Shown here: one piece after another, positions 3,735 through 40,716 of the stretch
How the letters are laid out: each line of letters begins with the position of its first letter
How positions within the stretch are numbered: position 1 is the stretch's first letter
Origin: a virus
Reading direction: 5' to 3' (one strand)
Virus record (IMG/VR): IMGVR_UViG_3300020048_000015
Coordinates: 96,001-160,000 of that record
Length of the DNA stretch: 64,000 bases
Made by a program: the position numbers and the translations under genes
Notes under the pieces: model-generated
The model's database searches: none
Seen by the model: only the letters and a program-made list of their open reading frames with translations
Told to the model about the DNA's origin: nothing

Positions 3735-5918
3735 ATGAAAGTATCAAAATTCATAAAACCACACAAAGATATACTATTAGAATATATTTATGATGATGGC
3801 AATAACATAAGCGATTCCTATAAAATATTACAAAACCTTAGAGATAACACTTTTTCTTATGTTGCAGGTGATTCAAGTTCCACTGGAAACACTTTAACTA
3901 ATCAACTTTTTTTATTAGGTGGTGTTAGTAATAACTATGGATTAGTAAACACTACAAACTATTCATTTTTACAACTAAAAGACTATTCTTCTGGCTTCCC
4001 AGTAAGACATGATACTATAAAAGTATATCTACCTATAAATTGGACATTTGGTGAATATTTAGGATTCTATATTAAAGTTTATACATATGACTATAATAAT
4101 AAATATACCTATGCTTTATCTACATTCTTCTTTGATTCAACAAATTTAAATCAAAGTTATTTATTAAACTATAACACACCTGCTTTATTATTCCAAGAAA
4201 AACTATGGGGTAAGAATATTACAATCAATGTACCATCAGTTTATTCAGTTGCTAAACAAAGACAAAATGATGCACCTAAACTAAATTCACTTAATTACAA
4301 TTTGACAAATGGATTGGGTTTAAGTTTAACATCACCAATATTTATAGATTTTCATTTTATAACACAAAGAAAAACTATAAATAATATAACAACATATTTC
4401 CTAACTGCTAAGACACCAATAAGTCTTCCACAAACACCAGATTTTGAAAATATAGGAACACAAATTATTCATTCTACAAATGGTGATTATTTTGAAATAT
4501 ATGGTGTTTTTAATGGTGATATAAATCAATTTGATAATTTTATAAATGATTCAATACAATTAGGAAAAAGATATTATGTAACTTATAATATAACACTATA
4601 TGAACAAAATATAAGAGGTAAATCATTTATTATAACTGTAACAGAAAACTTTAATGAAAAAATAGATTATAGACCTATTATAAAATACTCAACAACAACT
4701 GCAATAATAGATGTTGAAATGTATATAATTGATGCTGTTGATAACACTTCTATTTATAGAAGAGCTTCTTATGGTATGTTACAAGATGAAGTCGCTAAAT
4801 ATAGTTTAAATCTTACTAAGATAAATCTAGCTAATGCAAGTAAACCAAAAATCTATAATATAAAATCACCAGAAGGCGCTGGTATATTTGGAAATTCAGG
4901 TAATACTGCTATGGGAAAATCACAAATAATATTAGAACCAATTAAAATAAATTATACAGTTTTATCTGATAGATTTAATGTTGTAGCAAAAAGCGAAAAT
5001 GTAACAATCGGTAGCCAAAAATTCTATGGTATTGGTAAATTACAATTGTTATTACAACCATTTGATAATATAATACAATTGAAAATAGCACAAGACTTTG
5101 CTAATTCAGATAACACAACGACCCCAACATACTTGGATATGTCTAATATGGGCGAAATAAAATTAGTTATAAAAAACCAACAACTTATGTTTGAAACAGG
5201 TCTTTACTTAGCTTCAAACCAAGTTGAATTAACAATTGGTATGACAGTATTCAAAATACCAGCAAGTAGAATGAATGATATTAGAAAAATATATGATTCT
5301 GGTCTAAATGTTTTCTATGTTACTGCTAAAACTGATACAGGAACAGTTGTTGTTTATTCAGGATTATATATTATTTATGACTCCAAAGATAATGTTAATA
5401 ATTTAAGAAATATTGTTCAAGCTTCCAATGTAAACAATAATACGCAACCATCAGTAATAATTGATCCATCTACACAAAAAGGAACAGCTATTGTAACAAG
5501 AAGTGTTGGAGAATTTACACCACCAACACCAACAATAAAAAAATTGAAATTAACTTCCTTCAAAAGTATGCCATCATCAACAATAATAAGTAAAGTAACT
5601 TATACTATCGGAACCGATTCTTCTTTAAGTATAGATGGTTATAAATATACTTCTAATGACATTAAAATAGTTTTAGGATTACCATCATCACCAACTAACT
5701 TATCTTTCAATACAGACGCTTTGTACTCAAATGGTAAGTATTTGGATAAATTAGTTGATATAAACAAAAAGTTATATTCTAAACTTATTACTACTAATGA
5801 CAAAAAAGAAATTTCTAATTTAACACAACAAAATTTTAAGGCAACAGCAGAAGAACAAGCTAAATCTAGTGGTAAATTAGGAATTATAGACAAAATTACT
5901 GGTAAATTAAGACCCTAA
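3735..5918 (+). CDS. Large beta-rich protein, probable virion structural protein
   Basis: 727 aa, N/T/S/Y-rich; TAATATATA at 3702-3710; upstream of a tail-tube-fold gene. Confidence 0.55.
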   Translation: MKVSKFIKPHKDILLEYIYDDGNNISDSYKILQNLRDNTFSYVAGDSSSTGNTLTNQLFLLGGVSNNYGLVNTTNYSFLQLKDYSSGFPVRHDTIKVYLPINWTFGEYLGFYIKVYTYDYNNKYTYALSTFFFDSTNLNQSYLLNYNTPALLFQEKLWGKNITINVPSVYSVAKQRQNDAPKLNSLNYNLTNGLGLSLTSPIFIDFHFITQRKTINNITTYFLTAKTPISLPQTPDFENIGTQIIHSTNGDYFEIYGVFNGDINQFDNFINDSIQLGKRYYVTYNITLYEQNIRGKSFIITVTENFNEKIDYRPIIKYSTTTAIIDVEMYIIDAVDNTSIYRRASYGMLQDEVAKYSLNLTKINLANASKPKIYNIKSPEGAGIFGNSGNTAMGKSQIILEPIKINYTVLSDRFNVVAKSENVTIGSQKFYGIGKLQLLLQPFDNIIQLKIAQDFANSDNTTTPTYLDMSNMGEIKLVIKNQQLMFETGLYLASNQVELTIGMTVFKIPASRMNDIRKIYDSGLNVFYVTAKTDTGTVVVYSGLYIIYDSKDNVNNLRNIVQASNVNNNTQPSVIIDPSTQKGTAIVTRSVGEFTPPTPTIKKLKLTSFKSMPSSTIISKVTYTIGTDSSLSIDGYKYTSNDIKIVLGLPSSPTNLSFNTDALYSNGKYLDKLVDINKKLYSKLITTNDKKEISNLTQQNFKATAEEQAKSSGKLGIIDKITGKLRP

Positions 5919-5990: not shown

Positions 5991-6590
5991 ATGCGTTTAT
6001 CAAGCCAGTCAAGTTCGTTTATATTTTCATTACCCAGTGATTTTTTACCACAAGAAATAATCAATACATATAAACCAATTTTAGAAAAAAATTGGATTCA
6101 ATACGAAAATGTAATTGATTACTTAAATTCTACGATAAAATCGGTTAACTTCCCTGGATTAAGTGTTGCTACACCAGAACAAAGATTAATAAGAGGTAAA
6201 GTAAGAGCTTATAAACCTGCTACAAATGTTCAGGATATATTAACAAGCCATGAAATATCTGTAACTTTTAGATCAGTTGATTCTGATTTAAATTATTGGC
6301 TGACTTATGATATATTCAGCAAACATTATTTAGATGTTATAAATCTATATATAAACCCATTCACCATAACATCAATTGATATATGGCGAGATGCTATTTA
6401 TACTATAAAATTTATGGAAATAATTGCTGTTGGTTTAAGTGAAAATACATTTGATTATTCCCAACAAAAGACAAATTCAAAAGAATTTAATATAACATTT
6501 AAATTTAATTTTACTGATATTGAATTCTTATTAAATAAATCAAAAGTTCTTGAACTTGGAACTGTACCAACAATAATTCAAAAAATATAA
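5991..6590 (+). CDS. T4 gp3/gp19-like tail tube-fold protein (tail completion)
   Basis: SVNFPGLSV, ISVTFRSVDSDLNY, IKFMEIIAVGLSENTFDYS and FNITFKF match the gp3-family pattern. Confidence 0.55.
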   Translation: MRLSSQSSSFIFSLPSDFLPQEIINTYKPILEKNWIQYENVIDYLNSTIKSVNFPGLSVATPEQRLIRGKVRAYKPATNVQDILTSHEISVTFRSVDSDLNYWLTYDIFSKHYLDVINLYINPFTITSIDIWRDAIYTIKFMEIIAVGLSENTFDYSQQKTNSKEFNITFKFNFTDIEFLLNKSKVLELGTVPTIIQKI

Positions 6591-6596
6591 TTAATG

Positions 6597-6977
6597 ATGA
6601 AATACATAAAACTATTTGAAAATTTTTATGATGATACTTCTTGGACTAAAGAAATAGATGGAAAAGAAGAAACCATAACCATACACGATATACAAGAATA
6701 TCTTAAAAATGATGATGTTGTTAATATAAAAGTTGATGATATTAAACATATGTGCATCCACAAAAATAAAAAGGATAAAAAAACAATTGAACGTTCACAA
6801 AAAGCAGACTTAAATTATCCAATAATAATATCAAAAGGAACAGATGGTAAATTTAAAATGATTTTAGATGGACATCATAGATTAAAAAAGGCTATTGATG
6901 ATAGTGTAGAATTTATAAAAGCAAAAATTATAGATCTAAGAAATACACCAGATATTTACAAAAATATGTTTGAATAA
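6597..6977 (+). CDS. ParB/Srx-like domain protein with MKYIKLFENF leader
   Basis: DLNYPIII and MILDGHHRLKKA motifs. Confidence 0.7.
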   Translation: MKYIKLFENFYDDTSWTKEIDGKEETITIHDIQEYLKNDDVVNIKVDDIKHMCIHKNKKDKKTIERSQKADLNYPIIISKGTDGKFKMILDGHHRLKKAIDDSVEFIKAKIIDLRNTPDIYKNMFE

Positions 6978-7012: not shown

Positions 7013-7369
7013 ATGAAACACATTAAATTATTTGAAAATTTTGATGAAAAAGATGGTAAAAATTGGAAAACTGCATTTGATGCATATCAAGGTATGTATC
7101 TTAATATTACAGACGAAATTAAACAAAAAATTAAAAAAGAACTTGGATTAGATGATGATAATATCAAGTTTGGATATAACGAAATGCAAGAAGATAGAAG
7201 TATGTGGTTTGCTTCTATTCTAATTAATTTAGATGCATTATCTGATGATAAGAAATCAAATTTTAAAGATATAGTTAGAAATATCACCAACCCAAAAATT
7301 CCAAATAATGCACCCATAACAAAAAAATCCGGAATTATAAATAAAATTAAAGGTTTTTTTAGCAAATAG
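7013..7369 (+). CDS. Hypothetical protein with MKHIKLFENF leader
   Basis: Leader plus TAATATATA at 6980-6988. Confidence 0.7.
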   Translation: MKHIKLFENFDEKDGKNWKTAFDAYQGMYLNITDEIKQKIKKELGLDDDNIKFGYNEMQEDRSMWFASILINLDALSDDKKSNFKDIVRNITNPKIPNNAPITKKSGIINKIKGFFSK

Positions 7370-7370
7370 T

Positions 7371-7420
7371 AATAAAAAAAAATGTTGATAATATTTAAAT
7401 ATTATCAACATTTTTTTATT
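7371..7420. terminator. Bidirectional terminator between convergent genes
   Basis: aaaaaatgttgataat / attatcaacatttttt inverted repeat. Confidence 0.8.
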
Positions 7421-7592
7421 GTTCACCAAATAATTGTTCTTCTAACCAATCAAACCATTCTACTTCCAACATATCCCAATCAACATTATCTGTTAGTAAC
7501 TTTTTTGCTTCTCGTTGTCTATCAGTTATTAGTTTAGCCATTTCCCATAGTTTTTGATTTGATAATGGAATTGATATTCTTTCTTTAGACAT
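7416..7592 (-). CDS. 58-aa hypothetical protein (not in ORF track), acidic Trp-rich C-terminus
   Basis: Translated by hand: MSKERISIPLSNQKLWEMAKLITDRQREAKKLLTDNVDWDMLEVEWFDWLEEQLFGEQ*; start overlaps the upstream stop. Confidence 0.65.
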   Translation of the reverse strand: MSKERISIPLSNQKLWEMAKLITDRQREAKKLLTDNVDWDMLEVEWFDWLEEQLFGEQ

Positions 7593-7722
7593 TTTTTATA
7601 TTTTTTATCTTATCTAAGATATTTTTTACCCTAGTTCTTTTATCTTTATACCCAAATGATTTCAATATTTCTAAATTAATTTGTTTTGCTAATTCATCTG
7701 CTAACATCTTTACTACATCCAT
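7585..7722 (-). CDS. 45-aa protein resembling the gp23 spine-helix segment (not in ORF track)
   Basis: MDVVKMLADELAKQINLEILKSFGYKDKRTRVKNILDKIKNIKNV*; compare gp23 ELSGILATEIMLEINREV (recalled from memory). Confidence 0.55.
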   Translation of the reverse strand: MDVVKMLADELAKQINLEILKSFGYKDKRTRVKNILDKIKNIKNV

Positions 7723-7724
7723 AA

Positions 7725-8417
7725 TTATCTTATAATTTTAAAACAACAATATTTATTTTCCCAACCACCAACTTGTTCAAATGCATATTTATTATTTATC
7801 TTATCTATTAAAAGTGTTAATCCCGTTTCATTTTCTTTACCCGAATTACCAACAATAATTTTATCAGAATCAATAGTATCATCAAATATTACTTTAATCC
7901 CATAATTATTATTAGTATCTACATATTCTTGACAATCTCTACCAACTAAAACAAAATTAGCAGATCCTATTCTACTTTTAACAGCTATCATATTAGAAGC
8001 CATCATTATTTTTGACATAAATCTTCTAACATTATATTCATAATTTTCCGCTCTAGTTTTGTTTTCATCAAATTCAATAGTATAATTTAAACTTGATTCA
8101 ATCTGTATATTAGTATTCAAGAAATTAAAAACTTCATAGTATATTTGATCATATTGTGCAATGTCTTTAATAGTTAAAGACTTTGAATTTATAACCATTT
8201 CAATTGTTCCAAAATCGTCTTCTTTAATTTCTACATAACCAGATTTATATTCATCTATTTCATCATCAACTATTGCACCAATCGCCAAATCCCTATTTTT
8301 TTGTTTAATTTTGGAAATATCTTTTATTTGTGGTTCTAAATAATATATTGTGTTTGTATTTAATAAATCACATTCTTTATAAAAACACACTTCTTTTAAT
8401 TTTTCATTATTGTTCAT
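7725..8417 (-). CDS. Reduced gp23/gp24-like major-capsid-fold paralog
   Basis: FMSKIMMASNMIAVKSRIGSANFVLV...IKVIFDD...KIIVGNSGKENETGL parallels gp23 LLFQIDKEAVEIARQTGRGEGNFII...YRVYIDQY...FTVGYKGPNEMDAGI. Confidence 0.6.
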   Translation of the reverse strand: MNNNEKLKEVCFYKECDLLNTNTIYYLEPQIKDISKIKQKNRDLAIGAIVDDEIDEYKSGYVEIKEDDFGTIEMVINSKSLTIKDIAQYDQIYYEVFNFLNTNIQIESSLNYTIEFDENKTRAENYEYNVRRFMSKIMMASNMIAVKSRIGSANFVLVGRDCQEYVDTNNNYGIKVIFDDTIDSDKIIVGNSGKENETGLTLLIDKINNKYAFEQVGGWENKYCCFKIIR

Positions 8418-8574
8418 TTATCTTTCTTAAAATATTTTTTATAATTTTAATCCTTTTATAAAGATACAAATTATCACTACCAACTAAAATATAATTGGAA
8501 CTTCCTTTCCTACTTTTATTTGCTAAACTATTAGCCGCAGATAATAGTTTAGTTATTAAATCTCGTTGATACAT
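8407..8574 (-). CDS. 55-aa gp23-fragment-like protein (not in ORF track)
   Basis: [55 protein letters not shown]; same motif as in the adjacent 230-aa paralog. Confidence 0.65.
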   Translation of the reverse strand: MYQRDLITKLLSAANSLANKSRKGSSNYILVGSDNLYLYKRIKIIKNILRKINEQ

Positions 8575-8735
8575 CTATCTAAAATTTCTTTAATAAAAAT
8601 TTTTCTTTTTTCTTTTGTATATTCCCTTATCACATCATCAAAACTACCGTGCATCATACTAAGATCAGAAATCATTTCACTTTTCCAAGAAGTTTTCAAT
8701 TGTCTTGTTGACACATTTACTATTTTACATTCCAT
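8556..8735 (-). CDS. 59-aa gp23-fragment-like protein (not in ORF track)
   Basis: [59 protein letters not shown]; compare gp23 KQVIEAKSRQLKAAYSIELAQDLRAVHG. Confidence 0.7.
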
Positions 8736-9822
8736 GACTATTGTTTATTTTAAATCCACCATCAATTAGATACTTATCTTTACTAAACAATTCCAAATCA
8801 GATTGAACCATTTCTTTACATATATCTTCAACTGTATATGTTGGTTCCCATCCCAATTGTGTTTTAGCTTTAGTATAATCACCAATTAACAAATCAACTT
8901 CAGTAGGTCTGAAATATTCAGAATCAACTTCAATTAATAAATCACCAGTTTCCTTATTATAACCTTTTTCATCAACACCAACACCTTTCCATACGATATG
9001 GACATTAACTTCATTAAAAGCCAATTCAACAAATCTTCTAACTGTTATTTTTCTATTTGTTGCTAATATATAATCATCAGGTTTATCTTGTTGCATCATT
9101 AACCAAGCACCATACATATAATCTTTAGCGTGACCCCAATCTCTTTCGGCATCTAAATTACCTAAATATAGTTTTTCTTGTAATCCTAAGAATATTTTAG
9201 CAACTGCCATTGTAATTTTCCTTGTAACAAAGGTTTCACTTCTGCGTCCACTTTCGTGATTGTACAGAATTCCGCAACAAGCAAATATACCATAAGCTTC
9301 TCTATAATTAACTGTAATCCAATGTGCATAAAGTTTTGCAACACCATATGGACTTCTTGGATAGAATGGTGTAGTTTCTTTTTGTGGTATTTCCTGAACT
9401 TTTCCGAACATCTCCGAACTTGAAGCTTGATAATACTTAACCTTTTTTTCCATTCCAAGAATTCTAATAGCTTCAAGAACACGCAAAGCACCCATTCCTG
9501 TAACATCACCTGTATATTCTGGTAGACCAAAAGAAACTTTAACGTGTGATTGTGCGCCAAGATTATAGATTTCATCAGGTTGAACTTCTTTTATTATTCT
9601 AATTAAATTAGTTGAATCTGATAAATCACCATAATGTAAGAAGAAGTTATTATTTTCTTCGTGTTTATCTTTATAAAGATGATCAATTCTTGAAGTATTG
9701 AATGATGAACTTCTTCTTTTTATACCATGAACGATATAACCTTTTGATAAAAGCAATTCTGCTAAATAACTTCCATCTTGTCCAGTAATTCCTGTGCAAA
9801 GTGCTACCTTCTTTTTATCCAT
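8725..9822 (-). CDS. gmd: GDP-mannose 4,6-dehydratase
   Basis: [46 protein letters not shown] and RDWGHAKDY. Confidence 0.97.
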
Positions 9823-19704: not shown

Positions 19705-20550
19705 TTATTTTATTTTATCTAATATTAATTCAACTCTGTTTTCCCAAGTATGATTGTTATAAATATAATCCCTTACTCTTTTAGCTATACATTCCCTCTC
19801 TTGATCATTATCAAGGAAGTATTTTATCTTTTCACCAAGTTCATCTTCTGTATTATAAAACATTTTTGAAATGTCATCATTATAATCCAAATATTTATGA
19901 AAATGTTCATTATAATTTGTAAGCATAAATGATCCACTTGATAATATTTCAAAATACTTTGCGTTTATATCATAAGACATAGATTGATTAAAGCATATTT
20001 TAGAAGACTGCATTTCTTTTATATAATCAATACCATAAGCATTAAGACATTCTATTCCAAATTTATCACATATTCTTTTTCTTTCAGGTAGCATCCCACC
20101 AATAAATACAACATCTCTTGTTTTTATATCAGTATATTGAATCATTTGATGTATTCTTGAAGCAGCATATGGCATAAAAAACGAATTTTCTATATTATAC
20201 TTTTCCAAATCTTGTGGATTATTGAATGCGATATATTCAATATTAGCTTGTTTTATCCATGTTAGGAAATTTACCAAATGTGTATCTATCGCCCAAAACA
20301 ACTTTGGTGTTTTAATAGACACCCAATCCCACCACTTCCAACCACTATAACTTGGATAGTTATCCGTAATTATTATTAAATCATATTTATCAGCTATATT
20401 TGGAATATCTGTTTCTGATATCAATCCATGTGGACCAGCAACATCACAAGTGTGTCCTAGATTTCTAAAAGCATAACACAATTCATATCCTTCTTTCCAA
20501 TCAGAATGTGGCTTCCCAACTAGTAAAACATCAGCTATTAATATTTTCAT
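19705..20550 (-). CDS. CgeB/YkvP-like GT-B glycosyltransferase
   Basis: FWAIDTH, PYAAS, DVVFIG, KICFN and KYFEILSSGSFMLT. Confidence 0.75.
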   Translation of the reverse strand: MKILIADVLLVGKPHSDWKEGYELCYAFRNLGHTCDVAGPHGLISETDIPNIADKYDLIIITDNYPSYSGWKWWDWVSIKTPKLFWAIDTHLVNFLTWIKQANIEYIAFNNPQDLEKYNIENSFFMPYAASRIHQMIQYTDIKTRDVVFIGGMLPERKRICDKFGIECLNAYGIDYIKEMQSSKICFNQSMSYDINAKYFEILSSGSFMLTNYNEHFHKYLDYNDDISKMFYNTEDELGEKIKYFLDNDQERECIAKRVRDYIYNNHTWENRVELILDKIK

Positions 20551-29307: not shown

Positions 29308-29370
29308 TTTATATTTATACTATTTTATTAATATATAAAAAATAATCATCTTTGTTTTAATATATACAAT

Positions 29371-35750: not shown

Positions 35751-35969
35751 ATGAAACTATATCCTAAAAAATCTGTCTTATTAAGAGATTGTTTTAAAAT
35801 TGCATCAATCATTAAAAAGATTGATAAAGAAGATAAATGGCTTGTAAGTTATTATGATGATAAAAATAAATTCTCATATAAGTTAATAACTGAAGAAGAT
35901 ATAATTGAAGAAGAAGAATATTTAATTATAAAAAATCGTATTAATAAAATCAATAAACTGCTTGATTAA
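35751..35969 (+). CDS. Small hypothetical protein ending KNRINKINKLLD
   Basis: 72-aa ORF; TAATATATA just upstream. Confidence 0.6.
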   Translation: MKLYPKKSVLLRDCFKIASIIKKIDKEDKWLVSYYDDKNKFSYKLITEEDIIEEEEYLIIKNRINKINKLLD

Positions 35970-40221: not shown

Positions 40222-40716
40222 ATGAAAAAACTAGAACTAAGAATGTATGGTTTAGTTAATTATCAATTAACTGGAATTCAGAAAGGTATTCAATTTGGAC
40301 ACGCAGTTGTTAAATATGGACAGATGATGAAAAAATCTGACTATTATGACCAATCAAAAGTATATGATAAATGGGCAAATGAATATCAAACATTCATTAT
40401 ATTAAATGGTGGAACTACAAATATAAATCAAATAAGTTTAGGAACATTAAATCAACATTTAAAAACATTAAATGATAATGGTATTATATGTGCCGATTTT
40501 TATGAACCTGATTTGGGTGATCAATTAACGGCAATTTCTTTTATTGTCGATGAAAGGGTTTTCAATAAGAAAAAATATCCTGATTATAAAGATAATTATA
40601 TATCTAAAATAATGGGAAGGAATTTTGATATAAACTATCAAAATTGGAAAAAGAAAATTGGTGGTGATAAAAATGTATTCCTTAGAGATTTTATTAGAAA
40701 ATTTAACTTAGCTTAA
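40222..40716 (+). CDS. Peptidyl-tRNA hydrolase II-like phage protein
   Basis: LRMYGLV, GIQFGHA, IILNGG and FYEPDLGDQLTAI. Confidence 0.6.
   Translation: MKKLELRMYGLVNYQLTGIQKGIQFGHAVVKYGQMMKKSDYYDQSKVYDKWANEYQTFIILNGGTTNINQISLGTLNQHLKTLNDNGIICADFYEPDLGDQLTAISFIVDERVFNKKKYPDYKDNYISKIMGRNFDINYQNWKKKIGGDKNVFLRDFIRKFNLA

Follow-up and report, generated by a model that had tools for sequence, protein, structure and literature searches.

Tagged capsid-segment mini-genes and a compact capsid-fold paralogue in a huge T4-related phage

Is a row of small reading frames, each resembling a different piece of the T4 capsid protein gp23, the wreck of one gene or a set of genes in their own right? And if they are genes, what would they do? 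The question is raised by a locus in a 64,000-nucleotide (nt) stretch of viral DNA, positions 96,001 to 160,000 of the IMG/VR record IMGVR_UViG_3300020048_000015. We call this whole stretch the window; coordinates are window positions unless they are called genome positions. The locus lies at 7416-8735 on the minus strand, where five tightly coupled open reading frames (ORFs) of 59, 55, 230, 45 and 58 amino acids (aa) fill about 1.3 kb without a gap. In this order we call them A59, B55, C230, D45 and E58. The original prediction, made from the letters of the DNA, had the first four at the right coordinates and on the right strand; E58, in the same range, was left undescribed.

We are highly confident that A59, B55, D45 and the C230-type loci are real genes, derived from capsid genes and kept by selection, and that they belong to an undescribed class. 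The literature on decoys, capsid paralogues and capsid-fragment genes yielded no description of such genes. C230 is predicted to be a complete but small capsid-fold protein, a major capsid protein (MCP) paralogue. The three mini-genes A59, B55 and D45 each consist of a capsid excerpt and a C-terminal tag. The full explanation adds that the mini-genes act by capsid mimicry, with the tag as a common handle. We give this explanation as a whole a probability of about 0.5.

A complete capsid fold and three capsid excerpts

C230 (7725-8417, minus strand) carries no tag. It had been described as a compact version of gp23, a description that its predicted structure bears out. The AlphaFold2 model, built from the family alignment, has a pLDDT of 95.4 and contains the hairpin, the spine helix, the P domain and the A domain. 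The top Foldseek matches of the model are T4 gp23, HK97 and other HK97-fold capsid proteins. In VIA-align, T4 gp23 comes first with a Z of 16.3 (202 of 230 residues aligned over gp23 104-520), and gp24 reaches a Z of 12.8. As modelled, C230 is a full-length, complete HK97 fold that is nearest to T4 gp23, although its 230 aa amount to only about half of mature gp23 (456 aa).

The sequence of C230 matches the Pfam family Gp23 (PF07068) with an E-value of 1.4e-4 over profile positions 186-255. The score of 21.8 bits is below the curated cut-off of 24.4. An exhaustive profile search collects about 100 cluster representatives that align from end to end. Most of them are 228-266 aa long, so that C230 stands among compact gp23-type paralogues of about 230-265 aa. 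Pfam Gp23 is matched by 15 of 56 family members at E <= 0.01 (best 2e-9), and in three huge phages the family profile picks out the true MCP, with E-values of 1e-12 to 1e-16. C230 itself scores below the cut-off, yet its family matches Gp23 and MCPs. We therefore regard C230 as a distant relative outside the curated family boundary. Relatives between 95% and 38% identity to C230 were not found, and a scan of viral contigs with C230 as the query gave no matches.

Could C230 be the MCP of its own phage? The huge-phage genome LR756502.1 (642 kb) encodes a 572-aa MCP and, 12 kb away, a 250-aa member of the C230 family. Since the two coexist, the family is a paralogue and probably not the shell protein. 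Moreover, two related huge phages that are 98% complete have an MCP and no C230-type gene. Hence the family is accessory, and its absence from these relatives argues against an essential shell role for C230. By analogy with these three genomes, we reject C230 as the phage's own MCP.

The 182.7-kb source record (25% G+C) encodes gp32 and a gp5-like baseplate hub. Besides the locus, it holds no match to Gp23, to PHROG 138 or to the LR756502 MCP, and no MCP gene. C230 is also found on a 354-kb contig, and four near-identical contigs have the same ORF set. Related records in which a true MCP is encoded have lengths of 465-642 kb. Because no MCP gene was found, C230 occurs on a 354-kb contig and the MCP-bearing relatives are so much larger, we conclude that the record is a fragment of a huge phage genome. 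Its source is an uncultured huge T4-related phage. CheckV rates the record as 84% complete and similar records of about 175-180 kb, also without an MCP, as 73-78% complete. For this phage group, CheckV completeness looks too high.

The mini-genes are far too short for an HK97 fold. A59 (8556-8735, minus strand) contains a copy of a strand and of the start of the spine helix and ends in a basic tag. Its residues 4-34 align with T4 gp23 257-287 (13 of 31 identical), and it matches Pfam Gp23 with an E-value of 0.002 over profile positions 142-167 (18 bits, again below the cut-off of 24.4). B55 (8407-8574, minus strand) copies an A-domain helix and strand in residues 3-34 and ends in the tag YKRIKIIKNILRKINEQ. 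A six-frame search of the genome with the hidden Markov model (HMM) of the C230 family finds B55 at HMM positions 146-195 with an E-value of 1.4e-7. It also aligns with C230 131-161 (about 52% identical, counted by hand), with LR756502 MCP 422-451 and with gp23 at about 355-380, where B55 residues 13-32 fall on gp23 360-379. Its first seven aligned residues are nearer to the LR756502 MCP than to C230 (QRKLITK vs QRDLITK).

D45 (7585-7722, minus strand) copies the spine helix as MLADELAKQINLEILKSF (gp24 201-218, gp23 293-310) and ends in the tag DKRTRVKNILDKIKNIKNV. Its residues 6-25 align with T4 gp23 293-312, and it aligns better with gp24 201-232. D45 alone has no significant match to Pfam Gp23; in its family of 44-75 aa proteins, 10 of 12 members match. 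The best PDB match of this D-type family profile is T4 gp24 190-224 (E 0.006); with the helix of T4 gp24, the consensus of the D-type proteins shares about 40% identity. An ESM Atlas search gave no usable match.

The three copied segments are among the most conserved of gp23 and gp24. That each short ORF resembles a different piece of gp23 had been claimed in the original prediction. The T4 strings given there are correct (the ORFs align to gp23 257-287, 360-379 and 293-312), and the profile matches to Gp23 or to the C230 family agree with the claim, for D45 at the family level. On the evidence of these alignments, A59, B55 and D45 each join an excerpt of a conserved capsid segment to a C-terminal tag that is short, basic and amphipathic.

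The tag is basic and helical or amphipathic, follows the pattern ~KRxxxIxxIL(D/K) and aligns as an 11-mer. We built a position-specific scoring matrix (PSSM) from 10 tails of these genes and their homologues and searched the proteins of this genome with it. At a threshold of 12 there are five C-terminal matches (two of them training sequences of the PSSM) vs 0.1 in composition-matched shuffles, and no internal match. The new tag bearers are a 63-aa ORF, a 72-aa ORF (35751-35969, plus strand) and a leucine-rich-repeat (LRR) protein. Proteins with the tags NRINKINKLLD, YRENRIKKILE and IRNDKINYILD lie at window positions 35751-35969 (plus strand) and, outside the window, at genome positions 40252-40443 (minus strand) and 19961-20524 (plus strand), respectively. 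The two small tag-bearing ORFs outside the mini-gene locus have no capsid similarity.

The original prediction had noticed a similar tail on each short ORF and had called it foreign to gp23. The first half of this statement is supported by the C-terminal enrichment, the second perhaps not wholly. In A59-type proteins the tag stands where the spine helix would have its second half, and a 58-aa protein of this type (contig L014) aligns, weakly, from end to end with LR756502 MCP 318-373. Thus the tag may not be wholly non-gp23. We also considered the tag as a copied MCP segment. The best PSSM sites, the end of the LR756502 MCP spine helix and T4 gp23 28-38, score no better than shuffles (P 0.5 and 0.16) and so lend this origin no support. 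Look-alikes do occur: SKQAIIAKIFE in the gp23 propeptide (28-38), SKQIVAKIFE in LR756502 MCP 364-373, and RKNIISKIFK as the tag of the A-type 58-aa protein (L014:7647-7823).

Maintained genes or left-overs

A single frameshifted or decayed gp23 gene does not describe the locus. C230 is complete alone. The segments run, in gp23 numbering, from A (257-287) through B (about 355-380) and the whole of C230 to D (293-312), and homologues of A59 and D45 stand alone elsewhere. A subtler version of decay has to be weighed: A59, B55 and D45 could be still-open left-overs of a duplicated C230 or MCP gene, and their tail an A+T-rich by-product. At 25% GC, the chance of an open frame of 45-59 codons is 0.005-0.016 for each ORF.

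Four close relatives (L003, L004, L005 and L021; 94-97% nucleotide identity) keep all five ORFs without a stop or a frameshift. The sole indel among them, 12 nt in D45, is in frame. Substitution density is lowest in C230 (2.7%) and reaches 4-14% in A59, B55 and D45; this faster evolution of the small ORFs is what left-overs would lead one to expect. However, synonymous changes are in excess both in A59, B55 and D45 taken together (P 0.035) and in C230 (P 0.045). An A-type gene in the L014 clade has a ratio of nonsynonymous to synonymous polymorphism (pN/pS) of 0.18, again a synonymous excess (P 0.007).

A-type ORFs occur in distant huge phages, with 58 aa in the L014 clade (six clusters at 90%) and 53 aa in LR756502. 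One order of motifs, T..W..M..D..RK..I..I, is common to all A-type ORFs (53-59 aa). In the L014 clade and in LR756502 they lie between the same two genes, 2 kb from a C230 homologue. Judged by their sequences, they are probably relatives of A59. Just upstream of the A-type mini-gene in these phages is a strongly conserved gene of 442 or 446 aa (L014:7823-9151 and L017:8862-10202, minus strand) with a pN/pS of 0.04 and no Pfam or PHROG match.

D-type genes reach further. A profile search of 5.8 billion proteins adds 20 clusters of 44-73 aa proteins, with E-values down to 1.5e-11; the contigs that bear them reach 640 kb. Their core FGIDIADQLSAMLSEELAKQIDKEILQGI resembles gp23 281-308 and gp24 190-218, their tags include RKRKIENILKSFE and NKRRKNSIKKIF, and the long versions (68-75 aa) include the strand that is copied by A59.

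Some of this would suit left-overs. A59 and then B55 are colinear with an internally deleted capsid gene (positions 9-57 and then 146-195 of the family HMM). B55 and E58 have been seen in this clade alone. In the relative L026, the D-type ORF (4645-4791, minus strand; 48 aa) stops before the tag, which its 73-aa counterpart in the sister L027 has. T4 itself contains small ORFs from an old partial duplication of alt, according to the annotation of its record. Against this stand the recurrence of A-type and D-type genes as separate ORFs of similar size in lineages where the C230 homologues are only 27-38% identical, the far wider distribution of D-type genes than of their C230 neighbours, the unbroken frames with their synonymous excess, and a tag that is enriched, relative to composition-matched shuffles, at C-termini only.

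From these comparisons we conclude that A59, B55 and D45 are maintained, selected genes and not debris. This agrees with the original prediction, which had argued for maintained mini-genes rather than one decayed gene. It had proposed synteny and dN/dS (the ratio of nonsynonymous to synonymous substitution rates) as checks, and we found a synonymous excess and a conserved D-type position.

E58 (7416-7592, minus strand), the last small ORF of the operon, stands apart. It is acidic and Trp-rich, has neither capsid similarity nor the tag, evolves fastest of the five ORFs and is kept in close relatives only.

Possible roles and the sugar-operon setting

What would such genes be for? Their design, a conserved interface segment with a common tag in an accessory distribution, suggests binding by mimicry of a capsid segment. 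We hold this mode of action tentatively, at somewhat less than an even chance. The excerpt would be the specificity part and would bind whatever normally contacts the conserved segment. Possible targets are the capsid protein of the phage itself or of a rival, for instance in adjoining subunits of an assembling capsid; a capsid-modifying factor, which could be the neighbouring sugar enzymes if they act on the capsid; or a host sensor of capsid protein. The tag would be a common handle to one shared partner or destination, and C230 may be the tag's partner or a co-worker.

A bolder version, which we consider doubtful, is that huge phages keep a library of "excerpt plus tag" micro-proteins, each of which would present one conserved interface segment of the capsid protein, with three such segments in the operon described here. 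The tag would deliver all of them to one partner, possibly C230, and they would interfere with capsid recognition or assembly. Just as doubtful is the range of targets that such interference might have: host immune sensors, rival T4-type phages in co-infection and the phage's own capsid-modifying sugar enzymes.

Several findings weigh against the explanation as a whole, or against its sharper form as a decoy finely tuned to the phage's own capsid. The lack of an MCP gene in the record bars a comparison of the excerpts with their own MCP. Where such a comparison can be made, in LR756502, the D-type excerpt is about 28% identical to its own MCP vs about 39% to T4 gp24. It is no closer to its own MCP and therefore fits an old independent gene better than a tuned self-capsid decoy. 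The A-type profile has no capsid (gp23) match in PDB, and A59 matches the 58-aa ORF of L014 with a weak score (E 0.011 in a small search). The selection tests are based on 14-34 substitutions. Two of the five ORFs, B55 and E58, are restricted to one clade, as said above. The two 98%-complete relatives with an MCP have neither C230-type nor D-type genes, so that both types are dispensable. Finally, the copied segments lie outside the Gol region of gp23, and a free capsid fragment might activate a sensor rather than block it.

The last two points bear equally on the strongest rival explanation, which was also the first proposal of the original prediction and in which the mini-genes are anti-defence decoys or blockers whose excerpts occupy host sensors of conserved capsid surfaces and so spare the phage abortive infection. 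The conservation of the copied segments suits this role. Many defence systems have been reported to sense major capsid proteins (PMC9712102; PMC13728456), and the mini-genes are accessory and patchy, as anti-defence genes are. However, a sensor could just as well be set off by a free fragment, which is how the Gol peptide acts (PMC3014915). The excerpts do not come from the Gol region, their segment is not known to have a sensor, and the operon context is sugar metabolism and not a known anti-defence cluster. As judged from the sequences, we think that an anti-defence role is unlikely.

The operon context leads to the second rival. The ATG of A59 overlaps the stop of the gene for GDP-mannose 4,6-dehydratase (gmd; 8725-9822, minus strand), the last enzyme gene of a sugar and glycosyltransferase block of about 20 kb (8725-29307, minus strand). 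The block includes gmd, a double nucleotidyltransferase, a class II aldolase, a TylF-like methyltransferase and a PRK-like kinase, among others. Within the locus, A59 and B55 overlap by 19 nt, B55 and C230 by 11 nt and D45 and E58 by 8 nt; D45 begins 2 nt past C230. After E58 follows a perfect 19-bp A+T-rich stem between A and T runs (7376-7417, no strand assigned; z -6.2), probably a two-way terminator that closes the operon. The overlapping or adjoining genes and the hairpin after E58 make the five ORFs the tail of the long minus-strand sugar block (to about 29307). Scans for the T4 late-promoter motif and for sigma-70 promoters showed no enrichment. A TATAAATA motif lies at 29312-29319, just upstream of the first gene of the block.

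This position is not peculiar to the window. Mini-genes are coupled to the 3' end of gmd in the relatives L026 and L027 as well. C230 homologues overlap the end of a glycosyltransferase gene in L013, in L014-16, in a 208-kb contig and in LR756502, and the A-type gene of the L014 clade adjoins a GT9/GT1/methyltransferase block. A sugar gene is directly upstream or nearby in every longer context that we read.

On the other side of the locus, a 199-aa gene (MRLSSQ...; 5991-6590, plus strand) is convergent on the mini-gene operon. It is 55-82% identical in 24 related viral contigs and 36% in two more, and its protein is clearly conserved in LR756502. The protein has no Pfam or PHROG match. Its model has a pLDDT of 56, and Foldseek gives tail-tube or Hcp-like matches (T4 baseplate-tube complex 5iv5, E 2e-4), so that a tail-tube or Hcp-like identity can be proposed only tentatively. 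Anchoring on this gene retrieved 26 viral loci. D-type genes are convergent on it and overlap the last sugar gene in LR756502, in L026 and L027 (after gmd), in L032/33 and in L036. Since the D-type position is conserved while long and tag-less versions occur, the slot after the last sugar gene is old and its content variable. Between the 199-aa gene and the hairpin lie two plus-strand genes (6594-6977 and 7013-7369) whose products start with a common leader, M(M)K(Y/H)IKLFENF. That of the first gene is ParB-like (PHROG 17560, E 6e-11). The two look like a recent insertion of leader-tagged genes because they are missing in L003 and L004; in these close relatives E58 and the 199-aa gene are immediate neighbours.

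Hence the products could be helpers or regulators of capsid glycosylation or decoration that work with the adjoining sugar enzymes: acceptor mimics, transferase adaptors or, in the case of C230, a glycan-bearing capsid add-on. The sugar genes beside C230 homologues, A-type genes, D-type genes and the window set all speak for such a role. However, the link may arise only because the genes sit on one shared accessory island beside a conserved tail gene. All D-type loci were retrieved by way of the 199-aa anchor and are therefore not independent, no sugar gene adjoins the closest relative of C230 on its short contig (L011), and the other tag bearers (the LRR protein and the small ORFs) are not in sugar operons. 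There is also no evidence of capsid glycosylation in these phages. A glycosylation role thus appears less likely still than an anti-defence role.

The third rival, head assembly, we consider improbable. The mini-genes would be assembly or size-control factors of the phage's own prohead, similar to gp67 or gp68, or C230 would be a vertex protein similar to gp24. Like gp24 beside gp23, C230 is a paralogue with a capsid fold, and its homologue in LR756502 lies close to the MCP gene, at the 12 kb given above. Each complete relative has one full-size Gp23-family protein, therefore no separate gp24 is evident. T4 core proteins, too, are small and shape the head (PMC9958956, PMC9026906). However, a phmmer search of the five ORFs against an 8-protein database with T4 gp67, gp68, gp21, gp22 and Inh returned no match with an E-value below 0.04. 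The genes lie outside the head module and are missing in the two 98%-complete, MCP-bearing relatives, which makes an essential assembly role unlikely. The weakest rival is the left-over origin discussed above, to which the recurrence, the selection and the C-terminal tag leave only a slim chance.

Why would the answer matter? A natural, conserved class of genes whose products present just the best-conserved capsid segments, each on a shared tag, would give a direct handle on which capsid surfaces matter in infected cells and on who reads them. Among the triggers of bacterial immunity, capsid proteins are now known to be main ones, and the way in which they assemble is a classic problem of self-assembly. 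A micro-protein library, if there is one, would be a new mode of dominant-negative or decoy action, made by a phage from pieces of its own structural genes. Should the link to the sugar operon have a function, this would be a pointer to glycosylated capsids in huge phages. Even if the mini-genes are inert, the locus documents new small genes minted from pieces of a structural gene. What is new in this window is the conserved position at the ends of sugar operons and the combination of three different excerpts with a complete mini capsid-fold protein in one operon, which makes the locus a compact test case. The similarity of the D-type consensus to the T4 gp24 helix (about 40%) makes tests in the T4/E. 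coli system realistic.

Comparison with known systems

Encapsulins (M. xanthus EncA, PDB 9b9q and 4pt2) share two features with the locus. They are compact HK97-fold proteins of about 230-280 aa (Z 13.3 to C230), and in encapsulin systems unrelated proteins share a short C-terminal peptide. Over all encapsulins compared, the Z to the C230 model is 11-13 in VIA-align and thus below gp23. Unlike gp23, encapsulins have no sequence relation to C230; the likeness, taken from the model, is one of fold only. To our knowledge, the tag is unlike the known encapsulin cargo peptides. The T4 prohead core and scaffold proteins are no closer, as the ORFs have no similarity to them and the locus lies in a sugar operon rather than in a head module.

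The Gol peptide of the Gol/Lit/EF-Tu exclusion system is a conserved 29-residue region in the first quarter of the 521-aa gp23 (PMC3014915). Like the excerpts, it is a short and highly conserved stretch of gp23; on its own, as a peptide, it is biologically active, and a host factor recognises it. In contrast, the excerpts come from gp23 257-287, 293-312 and about 355-380, outside that first quarter. Furthermore, free Gol turns a defence on and not off, and Gol is not a separate gene.

As stand-alone small ORFs made from a piece of a virion-protein gene, alt.-1 and alt.-2 of T4, annotated in NC_000866 as an old duplication of the first part of alt, resemble the mini-genes. Unlike the mini-genes, they lie beside their parent gene, share no tag and are not known as a family across distant phages.

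Engineered fragments of self-assembling E. coli proteins inhibit their parent by titration (PMC9245647, PMC10769210). Such dominant-negative fragments resemble the mini-genes in that a short piece of a larger, self-assembling protein retains a native interface, although for the mini-genes the mechanism is inferred. The fragments are laboratory constructs, whereas here we have natural, conserved genes with a common tag.

The closest system is T4 gp23/gp24 itself (PF07068; PDB 7vrt, 6uzc, 5vf3 and 1yue). It differs from the locus in that C230 has only about half of the size of mature gp23 and a score under the Pfam cut-off, and in that the mini-genes are excerpts of 45-59 aa, unable to form the capsid fold and bearing a tag that gp23 and gp24 do not have. 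The likeness is in the parts: A59 copies gp23 257-287, B55 copies gp23 at about 355-380 and D45 copies gp23 293-312 or gp24 201-232, and C230, with its predicted HK97-type fold, would be an extra paralogue beside a true MCP, as gp24 is in T4.

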